The position numbers and the translations under genes were made by a program. Source: a virus. From it: DNA of 64,000 nucleotides. The stretch is taken from positions 4,422-68,421 of the IMG/VR virus record IMGVR_UViG_3300036851_000272. One strand, given 5' to 3'. The notes under the pieces were generated by a model. It saw only the letters and a list, made by a program, of their open reading frames with translations, was not told the origin of the DNA and searched no databases. This document shows positions 54,546-57,405 of the stretch, one piece after another. How positions within the stretch are numbered: position 1 is the stretch's first letter; each line of letters starts with the position of its first letter.

Positions 54546-54983
54546 TCATGCCGCGCCTCGGGCTTGTTTACGCGCCAGCTTCTCCAGGTGATCATCAATC
54601 ACCTCGGGGAGCACGCCCTGCAGGGTTAATCCGGCCCCTTTGACGATGGCGTTCCATCGGTATCGCTGGAGATCCGGAACGCGAATGGTCACCGGAACTG
54701 TACAGTTTTTCAGTTCCGGCATTGCCGTGATTAGGGGCAAAGCGGCGATTGCAGACTTTAGGTCTTGGGTATACCGAAACCATTCGCGAGAATGTCGGAG
54801 AGTCGCGAAGCGCCAATGAAACTCGCGCTCTGTCGCTAAGTCTCCGTCAATGTAGCCGAGGAATTTAGACCCGCTGCCAAGGGGATCGCTATATCGAATA
54901 GCGGCAACCCGCTGGGCCACGTCAGTACTGAATCCGATCTTTACCAAGCGACGGGATGGGCAGAGAAGAAAATACACGCTCAT
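54546..54983 (-). CDS. GIY-YIG/T5orf172 domain fused to RHH-like C-terminus
   Basis: VYF...VKIGFS.DV.QR...E.EFH.RF..LR...EWF; VTIRVPD...W...V...GLTLQ. Confidence 0.75.
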   Translation of the reverse strand: MSVYFLLCPSRRLVKIGFSTDVAQRVAAIRYSDPLGSGSKFLGYIDGDLATEREFHWRFATLRHSREWFRYTQDLKSAIAALPLITAMPELKNCTVPVTIRVPDLQRYRWNAIVKGAGLTLQGVLPEVIDDHLEKLARKQARGAA

Positions 54984-55174
54984 GTCGGCTCGCCTCCATT
55001 CTTCAGCCGTTTCAGATGCTCCCTGAAAGCAGCTTGACCGAAAGCCTGAAGGGATATCTTGGCCCGGATCAGGTGCATCTGGACCGCTTCTTTCTCCCTG
55101 GAAGGAATTCGGAACTTCACGAATTCCTCCGCCCGCCTATTGCGTTTTTCGTGATCTTGTGACATGGTGGACAT
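54980..55174 (-). CDS. Cro-position RHH-like regulator
   Basis: FVKFRIPSREKEAVQ......ISLQAF..AAFREHL; first gene of leftward early operon. Confidence 0.6.
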   Translation of the reverse strand: MSTMSQDHEKRNRRAEEFVKFRIPSREKEAVQMHLIRAKISLQAFGQAAFREHLKRLKNGGEPT

Positions 55175-55187
55175 GTGATCTGATGCG

Positions 55188-55231
55188 ATCTTACGCTATT
55201 TGGGTCTAAGTAGTCAAGTAGAATCAGACAC
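55188..55231 (-). promoter_or_regulatory. Early lytic promoter with upstream operator
   Basis: Minus strand GTGTCTGATTCTAC-TTGACT-N18-TAAGAT. Confidence 0.7.
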
Positions 55232-55252
55232 CCGAAAGGAAATATTTTTGCG

Positions 55253-55546
55253 ATGGTCAAGTCGGCCGAACCAAAACCCGAGCCACGGTCCATAAAGCTT
55301 CACCCCGCCACGCTCAGGGCAATGCAGCACGAGTGTGCGGACACAGGCCTCACTTTAATGGCCTTGATCGATCAGATGTGGGAAGCATACAGGCGACTTC
55401 CGGCGCGGGAAAAAGGAAGTGCGATTCCAGCCAATGCAGACATGCCCCCAAACCTGGGAGCGGTACTCTTAGAAATAGCTATAAATCCACGGGCCGGTGA
55501 AGAGATTCTTGCTGAGATGATGATCAAACATGCGAAAAGGCGTTGA
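55253..55546 (+). CDS. Repressor-position RHH-like regulator
   Basis: RSIKLHPATLRAMQHECADTGLTLMALIDQMWEAY; AAAGGA RBS; divergent from 54980 gene; no S24 peptidase domain. Confidence 0.55.
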   Translation: MVKSAEPKPEPRSIKLHPATLRAMQHECADTGLTLMALIDQMWEAYRRLPAREKGSAIPANADMPPNLGAVLLEIAINPRAGEEILAEMMIKHAKRR

Positions 55547-55577
55547 CATTTTGGGACGCCGGGCGCATCATGCCTGC

Positions 55578-56003
55578 ATGCTCCCCGGCCCCGAGGTTTT
55601 TATCACGGTCGAAGAACTTGCTCTGACCGCAGATTACGTCGCAGCCGCAGATAAAGCCGTGGAGCTCGTCTGGGCCAAAATGCTGGTCGGAGCGAAGCCG
55701 CCAAGTGGCAACCTGACCGAGAAGCAACTGCGCATCATATTAAGGCACGCACAGAGGCTCTTCCGGGAAAACCCGGCCAAATTCAACCTGCCGTGGGAGC
55801 TGATTAAATGGCTCTGGTGGCATGTCGGGGAGATCGCACAGGAGAAACTCGACGCCCTGGACTCAGAGGGCCGCTGGGACTGCTACTGGAGGGTAAAGTG
55901 GAGTAATGTGGCTCTGCGTATACACCTTGTCTGGGTCGCGGCCACATGGCCGCGCCACGCTCCCGAGATTTCCTCTATCTATTCCCGCCTGCCCCCAGAA
56001 TGA
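55578..56003 (+). CDS. Trp-rich hypothetical protein coupled to 7-TM gene
   Basis: TTGACA(55543)-N17-CATCAT then ATG 6 nt later (leaderless?); alternative ATG at 55530; ATGA overlap downstream. Confidence 0.6.
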   Translation: MLPGPEVFITVEELALTADYVAAADKAVELVWAKMLVGAKPPSGNLTEKQLRIILRHAQRLFRENPAKFNLPWELIKWLWWHVGEIAQEKLDALDSEGRWDCYWRVKWSNVALRIHLVWVAATWPRHAPEISSIYSRLPPE

Positions 56004-56716
56004 AGTACACGATTTGGACGCTAATGTACGTCGGACTGTTCGCCAGACTCCTGGCCTTCGGTTGTATGTGGCGTCGCGAATTGCTCGCAAAGTACATTTT
56101 CCTGACGCTGTTTCTCGTGCTCGGCAGCGTTCGCACTGGCGTGCTGTTGTACTTGCGCCACACCGATCAGCGAGCCTACGCGGCATTCCACTCCGCCAGC
56201 GCGGACGCCATGTTCCTGGTGCACCTGGGACTCGTACTGGAGGCTCTCGTAATGCTTGCCAGGCACCACCCGAACTCCGCGGTGTTCGCGGCCGGCGGGT
56301 ACGCGTTCCTCGGTATCATGTCGGCAGCGCTGGCGAGCCTCACAGCGAACCTCGGCGCATCAGGCACCGCCGACGTGCGGGTGAGTCTCGCGATCCGCAT
56401 ATATGCCGTGGCGTTTTTGATCTGTCTCGGCTGTACGCTCCTGTTTCTTCGCCAGTTCAAGCGGATCAAAATACGGGCGAACGTTCGGACGCACTGCTAC
56501 ATCCTCTACGCGATGTTCGTTCTGGTGGCGGCCGGTAGTGGTCTCGTCGCCTCCAAGAGCAGCCTGACGATTACTGGGATAGGTATGATCCTTCTGGTGT
56601 GTGCCGATATTGTGACGGGCTCCGCATGGGCTTACTGGATGCGGCCGAAGGGGGAGGAGTTGATCCAACCCCCTCCGTTACGCCGCACGCTTAATGAGAT
56701 CGAAGGCCGCGCCTAG
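56000..56716 (+). CDS. 7-TM integral membrane protein, putative peptide receptor
   Basis: 238 aa from MKYTIWTL; seven hydrophobic segments, short loops, short polar C-tail; receptor role is inference. Confidence 0.75.
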   Translation: MKYTIWTLMYVGLFARLLAFGCMWRRELLAKYIFLTLFLVLGSVRTGVLLYLRHTDQRAYAAFHSASADAMFLVHLGLVLEALVMLARHHPNSAVFAAGGYAFLGIMSAALASLTANLGASGTADVRVSLAIRIYAVAFLICLGCTLLFLRQFKRIKIRANVRTHCYILYAMFVLVAAGSGLVASKSSLTITGIGMILLVCADIVTGSAWAYWMRPKGEELIQPPPLRRTLNEIEGRA

Positions 56717-56886
56717 CGGACGCTGGGAGGTCCACCGCCGCCCTGGCCTGGAGGCAGGTCCGGATCGCAGAACGGCGGTGCGCAGGGTGGATCTTCAAAG
56801 AAGAGCGTACCGATGTAGTTCGATTGTTTCGCGGTCAACGCGAGAGCGCTGAGCGTCAGTAATCCAGCAAGTATAAGTCTTTTCAT
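56713..56886 (-). CDS. Secreted Pro/Cys-rich pre-peptide (57 aa)
   Basis: Not in track; MKRLILAGLLTLSALALTA-KQSNYIGTLFFEDPPCAPPFCDPDLPPGQGGGGPPSVR; AAAGG RBS; stop overlaps 7-TM stop in CTAG. Confidence 0.8.
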   Translation of the reverse strand: MKRLILAGLLTLSALALTAKQSNYIGTLFFEDPPCAPPFCDPDLPPGQGGGGPPSVR

Positions 56887-56949
56887 TTGGTTAGCCTTTC
56901 AGGTTATTTGGGCCGATGCCCATTGGTTGACTGTACCAGCTTTTATTTC

Positions 56950-57000
56950 GTGTCTGAGTGTCTGTTTCTACTTGACTGCTGGAGAGATTAGGCGTAAGAT
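56950..57000 (+). promoter_or_regulatory. Second copy of the early promoter/operator
   Basis: GTGTCTGA-GTGTCTGTTTCTAC-TTGACT-N17-TAAGAT; 21/23 identical to the minus strand of 55209-55231. Confidence 0.75.
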
Positions 57001-57006
57001 TTCTTC

Positions 57007-57405
57007 CAGCGCGCCTGTCTATGGCGATCCGCTGGCAGGTACAAGGTACGCCGCGCTGAGCAAGTGTAGATTACTAACCGCGTACTGAAAGCTGAGAAGA
57101 AACCGGAATGGCAAACGTCATCTACCGGAATGACTGCTGGACAAGAGCTTAGTAAACTCGATCCAGTACGGATCCGCAGCGACGGAATGCGGAGTTCCAA
57201 GAGCCAATTCAAAGCCTTTCTCTTTTGCATCGCATTGCTCTGAAGACGGAGCGCAGCTGGAAGAACCGAAAGACGGTACCGGAGAAAAGAGGTATTGCTT
57301 AAAATGAGAAACGATGCAAGAATGAAGCTGTCTACTCAGCTTATAGGGACGCCGAGCACTTTACTACTTGAGGCTAACGCTTCTTGGCTCGGCGTTTCGC
57401 TTTTT
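57007..57405 (+). ncRNA. Candidate ~400-nt non-coding transcript
   Basis: Promoter upstream, only short ORFs on +, 5' stem CAGCGCG/CGCGCTG, 3' stem ACGCCGAGC/GCTCGGCGT followed by T-tract. Confidence 0.45.

Follow-up and report, generated by a model that had tools for sequence, protein, structure and literature searches.

Envelope cargo as a possible role for a seven-helix membrane protein, its coupled tryptophan-rich partner and a probable exported peptide in the putative immunity region of a temperate soil phage

Why would a phage keep a seven-helix membrane protein, a coupled tryptophan-rich protein and a probable exported peptide beside the genes that occupy the position of its lysogeny switch? 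The question is raised by a cassette at positions 54980-57405 of a stretch of IMGVR_UViG_3300036851_000272, a 68,421-bp virus record from a soil metagenome; bases 4422-68421 of this record, 64,000 nucleotides (nt) in all, are called the window here. An earlier note, made from the letters alone, had proposed a peptide communication system in which a disulfide-looped peptide binds the seven-transmembrane (7-TM) protein and a signal passes through the coupled protein to the repressor. We tentatively favor another answer, in which the region is an immunity (lysogeny-switch) region and the genes for the 141-amino-acid (aa) tryptophan-rich protein, the 7-TM protein and the 57-aa peptide are accessory cargo that acts at the host envelope, by exclusion or abortive infection. 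We favor it because of position, the strongest clue available, which parallels the arrangements in phage lambda and mycobacteriophage Sbash. The elements on which the argument rests are the following (ORF, open reading frame).

54980..55174, minus strand: ORF for a 64-aa basic protein in the position of Cro
55188..55217, minus strand: left outward promoter-like site, TTGACT-N18-TAAGAT, a consensus match that ends 13 nt before the ATG of the 64-aa gene
55209..55231, no strand assigned: left repeat arm, a candidate operator, holding the 20-nt copy 55212-55231 (minus strand)
55253..55546, plus strand: ORF for a 97-aa protein, placed where a repressor would be and pointing away from the early operon, with GAAAGG before it
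55543..55571, plus strand: promoter-like site TTGACA-17-CATCAT, with 10 of 12 consensus matches, within the end of the 97-aa gene
55578..56003, plus strand: 141-aa Trp-rich protein, from the in-frame ATG at 55578; the frame opens at 55530 (157 aa)
56000..56716, plus strand: 238-aa seven-helix inner-membrane protein, predicted N-out/C-in; a longer frame opens at 55946
56713..56886, minus strand: 57-aa ORF, convergent with the 7-TM gene, whose product has an N-terminus like a Sec signal and a tail rich in Pro and Gly that holds C-x4-C
56958..57000, plus strand: right repeat arm (56958-56980) and outward promoter-like site TTGACT-N17-TAAGAT (56972-57000), a consensus match that includes a 20-nt copy
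57001..57410, plus strand: candidate non-coding RNA, ORF-poor and structured, which precedes a methyltransferase gene and closes the region

The cassette stands apart from the genome around it. The minus strand holds nearly all genes, from 55174 round the circle to 58263, and the cassette and the methyltransferase gene form a plus-strand island, with the early operon starting on one side of it and the late operon ending on the other. The 64-aa gene heads the long leftward early operon, in which T5orf172, DUF2303, RecT, exonuclease and integrase genes come next. The cassette lies between the arms of a 23-nt inverted repeat (55209-55231 and 56958-56980; 91% complementarity). The 20-nt core of this repeat occurs only twice in the 64 kb, at 55212-55231 and, inverted, at 56958-56977 (0.00 expected, from 100 shuffles), and each copy belongs to an outward-facing TTGACT...TAAGAT promoter-like site, of which it spans the -35 hexamer and the 14 nt before that hexamer. 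The left outward site leads to the 64-aa gene and the recombination/integrase operon, and the right one to about 400 nt without good ORFs. By eye, the inner sides of the arms carry TAGAAT (left) and TAGAAA (right), directed inward to the 97-aa gene and the 57-aa ORF respectively; our promoter scan did not call either of them as a promoter. The operator/promoter pattern had no exact match in the viral contig collection.

Because the segment lies between two outward copies of what appears to be one early promoter/operator, its genes would be expressed when these are shut, that is, in the lysogen. Both the 97-aa gene and the 141-aa/7-TM pair appear to read rightward, away from the putative early lytic operon. 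The site at 55543-55571, which has a perfect TTGACA as its -35 hexamer, could add a transcript that would be near-leaderless, starting at or next to the ATG of the 141-aa gene at 55578. The ORF-poor segment at 57001-57410, which lies directly beyond the right outward site, folds with a minimum free energy of -151 kcal/mol (z -3.62; 0 of 100 shuffles as good) and ends, by eye, in a long hairpin and a T-run. ORFs within it have low coding scores, and an Rfam scan of 54800-58400 returned no family and one sub-threshold match only. We regard this segment as a candidate regulatory RNA under joint control with the early operon.

The record is a complete temperate phage genome rather than a chromosomal prophage: its ends share a 127-nt terminal repeat, and the estimated completeness is 100%. 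We call the phage temperate because it encodes a tyrosine integrase (45522-46655), RecT, an exonuclease and RusA; DUF2303 and head genes are also present.

Reading of the ORFs bears out the anatomy that the earlier note had described. Genes at 55578-56003, 56000-56716 and 56886-56713 are all present. The translational coupling that it claimed is visible as an ATGA overlap at 56000-56003, where the stop of the 141-aa gene meets the start of the 7-TM gene, and the convergent stops of the 7-TM gene and the 57-aa ORF do share one CTAG (56713-56716). The protein called Trp-rich has 10 Trp among its 141 residues, the seven membrane helices agree between hydropathy and a structural model, and the 57-aa ORF has both the signal-like N-terminus and the C-x4-C that had been noticed in it.

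The ATGA overlap speaks for joint synthesis of the 141-aa and 7-TM proteins. The 141-aa protein is probably soluble and all-helical. It is an ORFan, for which a word-indexed protein search returned the query only, an Atlas search gave no usable match, and neither the 141-aa nor the 157-aa form matched Pfam (E <= 0.1), PHROG, NCBIfam or PADLOC (E <= 1); its single-sequence model is poor, with a predicted local distance difference test score (pLDDT) of 56.9.

The 7-TM protein is far better defined. Kyte-Doolittle analysis finds seven hydrophobic segments in its 238 residues, and an AlphaFold2 model built on 25 sequences has seven long helices (mean pLDDT 90.1; predicted template-modeling score 0.85). 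We place its start at 56000 rather than at 55946, the homologues P0003 and P0004 beginning MKY.... A word-indexed search with the protein returned only itself, whereas an exhaustive HMMER search of 1.84 billion representatives gave 28 hits at E <= 0.001, with identities of 56% (P0003), 37% (P0004) and 22-34% (the others). The aligned homologues have 225-280 aa and match across most of their length. The family alignment consists of the window protein and 24 of the 28 homologues; P0020 (414 aa, four short stretches) and P0024, P0027 and P0030 (194-210 aa, partial) were omitted. In the Atlas, the protein falls among clusters of 90-261 members that are commonest in Acidobacteriota and have no Pfam family. 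One family member lies on an 887-kb contig, P0004 on one of 38.3 kb, and the 56%-identical homologue on one of 11.8 kb, the genes of which the protein collection includes.

Positively charged residues orient this protein in the membrane. Across the 25 family members, loops 1, 3 and 5 carry 3.04, 1.44 and 2.24 Lys+Arg per loop, and loops 2, 4 and 6 carry 0.92, 0.84 and 0.68; the N-terminus is therefore placed outside and the C-terminus inside. The conserved polar positions (R26, Y32, E81, H89, R159, N161, H165, G218, E219) lie on or near the cytoplasmic face, and W210, aromatic rather than polar, is conserved too. On the outer side, where the loops are 5-9 residues long, Y60 is the sole conserved residue. 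Most members end in a long charged C-terminal tail. It is missing from the phage copy, P0003 and P0004, a hint that the role of these three has changed. The 141-aa protein was considered as a stand-in for the missing tail and rejected (hhalign probability against the family, 0.48%).

Named families offered no assignment. The window protein had no family in Pfam, PHROG, NCBIfam or PADLOC (E <= 1), neither it nor the other aligned members could be assigned to a curated 7-TM family (7tm_1-3, 7TMR-DISM, bacteriorhodopsin), the 25 members giving single chance-level Pfam matches only, and the family profile matched Protein Data Bank (PDB) sequences at E >= 0.8 at best. Foldseek returned no match to the model at E <= 0.001 (best E 0.079 in PDB and 0.18 in BFVD), its weak rows being G-protein-coupled receptors (GPCRs), rhodopsins and herpesvirus GPCRs. 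VIA-align placed the GPCR-like domain of LYCHOS/GPR155 first (Z 13.6, root-mean-square deviation 3.7, 182 aligned residues), and the adhesion GPCR ADGRL3 scored Z 12.5. Adhesion GPCRs, Smoothened, Frizzled, class A/B GPCRs, Ste2 and proteorhodopsin follow LYCHOS, and no row stands apart. The best 50 neighbors are all of GPCR/rhodopsin type, at Z 10.4-13.6, where a Z below about 13 may mean no more than a common helical-bundle arrangement. We thus describe the modeled protein as having a GPCR/rhodopsin-like seven-helix arrangement and do not call it a GPCR. A retinal protein was rejected because helix 7 (residues 189-213) contains no Lys.

The third-codon-position GC content of the 7-TM gene, 0.76, is high and not an outlier (45 genes: mean 0.669, standard deviation 0.055); composition thus gives no hint that the gene was captured recently. 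Pattern scans with a family alignment in viral, genome and metagenome contig collections, and with P0032 in genome contigs, P0031 in metagenome contigs and P0007 in viral contigs, found no related locus, and tblastn with the 7-TM protein and with P0018 had no match in phage and plasmid collections. An unnamed and uncharacterized family with a conserved cytoplasmic face deserves study whatever the function of the cassette.

Whether the 57-aa ORF is a gene was judged on several features. It begins MKRLILAGLLTLSALALTA, its later part holds EDPPCAPPFCDPDLPP, and the last 38 residues of the product include 9 Pro, 6 Gly and 2 Cys. A crude signal-peptide rule, which we wrote post hoc with this ORF already known, is passed by 3 of 643 ORFs of at least 40 aa; 20 shuffled genomes gave 0.45 per genome (rate 0.0007). 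GAAAGG lies 8 nt before its ATG, and Shine-Dalgarno-like motifs of this sort precede 27 of 56 presumed genes as against 17.8% of 5000 random positions. The ORF occupies DNA that is free of other genes. Folding of the RNA across it is unremarkable (z -0.26), which argues against a mere terminator that happens to read as protein. Its codon score of 0.049 is ambiguous, being reached by 16% of spurious ORFs while 25% of real-gene windows score lower; the 97-aa gene scores close to it, at 0.054.

The earlier note had called this ORF unannotated, and its exact product is indeed absent from a collection of 15 billion proteins in which the exact 97-, 141- and 238-aa products are present; it was therefore passed over by gene callers. 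A search of 5.8 billion proteins gave one candidate relative that shared words with it, and none at E <= 10. Pfam, NCBIfam, PHROG and PADLOC (E <= 1) gave no family, the nearest being VPA0252 (E 0.027, over residues 1-28 only). A Rz1-type o-spanin or a phage lipoprotein such as Cor, Llp or Ltp was considered and rejected, as the product has no lipobox Cys: its signal region ends ...LSALALTAKQ, without Cys, and a scan of all starts and frames with a strict lipobox pattern of our own found none in the genome. Judged from its sequence features, the ORF probably encodes a real, Sec-exported product.

We propose that these parts form a protective module of the prophage. The 7-TM protein would sit in the inner membrane, where its conserved cytoplasmic face could partner the co-translated Trp-rich protein; the peptide would be exported by Sec to the periplasm and may rest against the outer face of the 7-TM protein. 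Acting as a group, the three would shield the lysogen against other phages, whether through superinfection exclusion or through abortive infection. Small proteins that are exported or reside in the membrane are typical exclusion factors of lysogeny modules, as with Ltp of TP-J34, lactococcal Sie2009 and Imm/Sp of T4. The 97-aa protein would be the repressor, a role that we infer from position only.

Several results weigh against this proposal. No DNA-binding domain was recognized in the 97-aa protein by family or PDB searches, and another regulator candidate, a sub-threshold winged-helix protein, lies elsewhere at 30958-31440. The promoter scan called 3 sites in the region where 1.7 are expected, with a consensus that may not be that of the host, and by its rule found none for the peptide gene. 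PADLOC-DB 2.0 gave no defense match for the 97-, 141/157-, 238- or 57-aa proteins at E <= 1. The 141-aa protein aligned with lambda RexA over 6 residues (BLASTP E 0.49), and the 7-TM family profile compared with lambda RexB had an hhalign probability of 0.06%. The 7-TM family is commonest in bacterial records, in the clusters of 90-261 members and with one member on the 887-kb contig, which may mean an ordinary cellular function.

That last point leads to the explanation that survives best beside the one we prefer. The 7-TM protein could be a host-derived membrane protein kept as a lysogenic-conversion or auxiliary gene, for transport, for a lipid or envelope enzyme or for stress sensing, with neighbors that are unrelated to it or, in the case of the 57-aa ORF, no gene at all. 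We consider this unlikely, and nevertheless the most serious of the alternatives. The breadth of the family speaks for it, as most of the 28 representatives are full-length, at 22-30% identity, and the Acidobacteriota-rich Atlas clusters have no Pfam assignment. The conserved E81, H89, N161 and H165, by the cytoplasmic membrane face, could on our interpretation form a catalytic or metal site. Neither neighbor is conserved along with the 7-TM protein, and the 57-aa ORF, uncalled by the collection pipelines, has an ambiguous codon score. The ATGA overlap, however, argues for joint production of the 141-aa and 7-TM proteins; the signal-like start, Shine-Dalgarno-like motif and free location make a chance 57-aa ORF unlikely; and the absence of the charged tail from the phage copies suggests that their role has changed.

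The communication proposed in the earlier note is much less probable. In a widened form of it, the exported Cys/Pro peptide would be the ligand of a 7-TM receptor of GPCR-like fold, which would signal through the 141-aa protein to the switch, either between cells or within one periplasm. The anatomy that it invoked (a switch-like region, a 7-TM protein, a coupled protein and a probable peptide) is in place, and the peptide gene and the 97-141-7TM unit do lie within one pair of duplicated promoter elements. The GPCR/rhodopsin-type bundles among the structural neighbors are consistent with a receptor, subject to the reservation on Z values below about 13 and to the lack of a Foldseek match at E <= 0.001.

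A predicted complex of the peptide and the 7-TM protein, which the earlier note had suggested as a check, gave weak support. Folding the family alignment with peptide residues 20-57 scored 0.33, 0.32 and 0.32, against 0.00 for the best of three controls; the runs agreed in at least 73% of contacts, and the pLDDT of the partner was at least 52. In calibration, 58 of 80 solved complexes attained the mark, as did 2 of 110 mismatched pairs, and passes at or below 0.60 comprised 7 of the 80 solved complexes and both passing mismatches. Unless the pairing was likely to begin with, a pass at this level is wrong more often than it is right, and resemblance to solved complexes, here those of peptides with GPCRs, can cause it. 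We take the pass to raise the odds of contact modestly: if the peptide is real, contact between the two proteins is possible but somewhat doubtful, and the modeling does not bear on what such contact would do.

Other observations fit signaling poorly. Conservation in the family is cytoplasmic, and outer loops of 5-9 residues face any external ligand. As the earlier note had remarked, no kinase or TPR domain is found: Pfam searches gave no kinase, TPR_12 matched nothing in the 68-kb genome at E <= 0.1 (a control positive in 14 of 14 genomes), and RNPP_C had 0 matches (a weak probe, its control positive in 3 of 14 genomes). The 141-aa protein has no DNA-binding domain, and nothing ties it or the 7-TM protein to DNA binding or to the 97-aa protein. 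Relatives of the peptide and the 141-aa protein are missing although the 7-TM protein has a 56%-identical homologue, which hints weakly against a conserved trio; small ORFs often go uncalled, and the word index is insensitive, which limits this hint. Acidobacteriota are diderms, in which a peptide with nothing more than a Sec signal would reach the periplasm and go no further. We suspect an acidobacterial host from the distribution of the 7-TM family only, and in such a host Sec export by itself would not free a peptide of about 4 kDa. As signs of the envelope type of the host, the genome offers no lipobox ORF and one weak Rz-like spanin match. Finally, the position suits exclusion or abortive-infection cargo of a prophage at least equally well. 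The specific form of the idea, that a phage of a diderm carries a GPCR-fold receptor and its own disulfide peptide ligand in the immunity region and signals via the Trp-rich protein to the switch, is a shade more improbable again. If true, it would be the first membrane-receptor signaling in phages and a bacterial ligand-receptor use of a GPCR-like fold, extending such communication beyond the RRNPP systems of Bacillus.

An exported toxin paired with its immunity protein, in which the disulfide peptide harms non-lysogens or the envelope and the 7-TM protein shields the producer, is likewise improbable: a small two-Cys peptide with a Sec signal does lie convergent with an adjoining polytopic membrane protein, their weakly predicted contact would suit it, and Sec-dependent bacteriocins with adjacent membrane immunity genes are established in Firmicutes, but the peptide has neither a family beyond its signal region nor relatives, its Pro/Gly-rich tail is in our judgment unlike known pore-forming peptides, the same export problem arises in a diderm host, no CPBP/Abi or other immunity family was found (1 of 25 family members touched Imm8, E 0.083), and neither peptide nor 7-TM protein belongs to a described bacteriocin or immunity family in Pfam, NCBIfam or PHROG.

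Envelope cargo of the prophage remains our tentative preference. The 64-aa protein had no Pfam, PHROG, NCBIfam or PDB match, and the 97-aa protein had none in Pfam, PHROG, NCBIfam, PADLOC (E <= 1) or PDB. In PADLOC, the 64-aa protein met PbeC (E 0.023) and the T5orf172 protein met PDC-S57 (E 0.038), both at chance level. A ribbon-helix-helix reading of the 64- and 97-aa proteins, made by eye, was set aside, as PDB sequence searches gave it no support.

The phage has no close described relative, because its portal and capsid proteins match nothing in phage collections. The portal query had no match in the phage collection, and the DUF2303 and major-capsid queries had none in the viral contig collection; DUF2303 matches in the phage collection, among the 12 rows listed, are 33.6-39.8% identical and belong to unrelated phages. 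We also compared the cassette proteins with 23 RecT-bearing IMG/VR loci, within the fetched flanks. No match to the 7-TM family profile was found there at E <= 1, and the 64-, 97-, 141- and 57-aa proteins were unmatched at E <= 0.01; these loci were matched only by DUF2303 (1 locus), exonuclease (2 loci) and integrase (4 rows in 3 loci). The one public run in which the stretch is listed is a soil metagenome, probably its source; no RNA run is listed, which says nothing about expression in either direction. Contigs of that soil run showed only the source contig and no variants of the stretch. No cassette alike was found in the libraries searched, and our searches of open-access literature returned neither a seven-helix prophage exclusion protein nor a membrane-receptor analogue of arbitrium.

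Neighboring genes offer further observations. The methyltransferase gene at 57440-58201 (plus strand), the sole other plus-strand gene of the island, encodes a class I S-adenosylmethionine-dependent enzyme (Methyltransf_11, E 4e-15; PADLOC mad2 model, E 6e-17), and a strong GGAGGA before ATG 57470 suggests that it starts there and not at TTG 57440. Two small T5orf172/MUG113-type (GIY-YIG-like) proteins are encoded on the minus strand, at 54546-54983 (above the Pfam cut-off) and at 32342-32656 (sub-threshold). The genome has two tyrosine recombinases, a Xer-like one at 35640-36536 (plus strand) and the phrog_1 integrase at 45522-46655 (minus strand); the latter adjoins a 474-nt gap at 45049-45521 that is a candidate attP. 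On the minus strand, 7186-7611 encodes a 141-aa membrane-anchored protein with a weak Rz-like spanin match (phrog_214, E 0.007) that adjoins a 1140-aa tail protein; three small membrane proteins and a 174-aa protein at 3351-4870, which have no family match, may be a lysis cassette; and the product of 26526-26939 passes the signal-like rule with a start, MKLSRRSWF..., that looks twin-arginine-like.

How the cassette compares with known systems depends on which of its parts is considered. Like the arbitrium locus of Bacillus phages, it has a gene for a small Sec-signal product beside the region that controls lysis and lysogeny. The AimR-AimP-AimX system is described in two papers (PMC6458997, PMC6536502). 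Its receptor is an intracellular TPR/RRNPP protein, whereas the candidate receptor here is a membrane protein; its peptide gene lies downstream of and co-oriented with that of the receptor, whereas the 57-aa ORF is convergent, on the opposite strand; and its peptide is processed to a short mature form and taken up by Opp. Of such a precursor, the 57-aa product shows the signal-like N-terminus and no sign of processing. The hosts differ as well, Bacillus for arbitrium and a suspected diderm here.

With GPCRs and microbial rhodopsins, the 7-TM protein shares seven helices and the predicted N-out/C-in topology. Its model superposes on LYCHOS/GPR155, adhesion, Frizzled/Smoothened and class A/B GPCRs and proteorhodopsin over 170-215 residues at Z 10.4-13.6, a range that for the most part may express a common bundle arrangement. 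It differs from them in sequence (5-15% identity, no Pfam 7tm or rhodopsin match) and in its very short outer loops. Bacteria are not known to have G-protein machinery.

Closer in setting are the exported or membrane proteins of superinfection exclusion (Ltp, Sie2009, Imm/Sp, SieA), likewise small products that act at the envelope; they are encoded beside repressor or integrase genes and are made in the lysogen. The cassette has no PHROG or Pfam relation to them, and its peptide has no lipobox. SieA of P22 is described as an inner-membrane exclusion protein (PMC10883804).

Closest of all in arrangement are the modules that pair a soluble with a membrane protein. In Sbash, genes 30 and 31 encode a soluble and a membrane protein by the repressor, in the order seen in the cassette. 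In the model proposed in the Sbash paper, for lambda as well, the soluble protein is a sensor that turns on the membrane protein as an ion channel and so aborts infection; the paper also reports that RexA and Sbash gp30 carry DUF4747 (PMC6426596). The 141-aa protein differs from these in having no Pfam match (E <= 0.1), and RexB and gp31 have 4 membrane helices where the cassette protein has 7, in a GPCR-like arrangement. The Rex system has no exported peptide gene, whereas the cassette has a probable one, and the putative regulator here, of 97 aa, has no LexA-type or helix-turn-helix domain. The order is nevertheless that of lambda cI-rexA-rexB: the gene in the regulator position comes first, then one for a soluble protein and then one for a polytopic protein of the inner membrane, all pointing away from the early lytic promoter. 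Two outward promoter-element copies flank the cassette here as OL/PL and OR/PR flank cI-rexA-rexB there. The likeness to Rex would thus be one of working alike, judged by position, rather than of membership. If our reading holds, the cassette would supply new and unrelated parts to the prophage protection modules typified by RexAB, from a phage of a poorly studied soil phylum.

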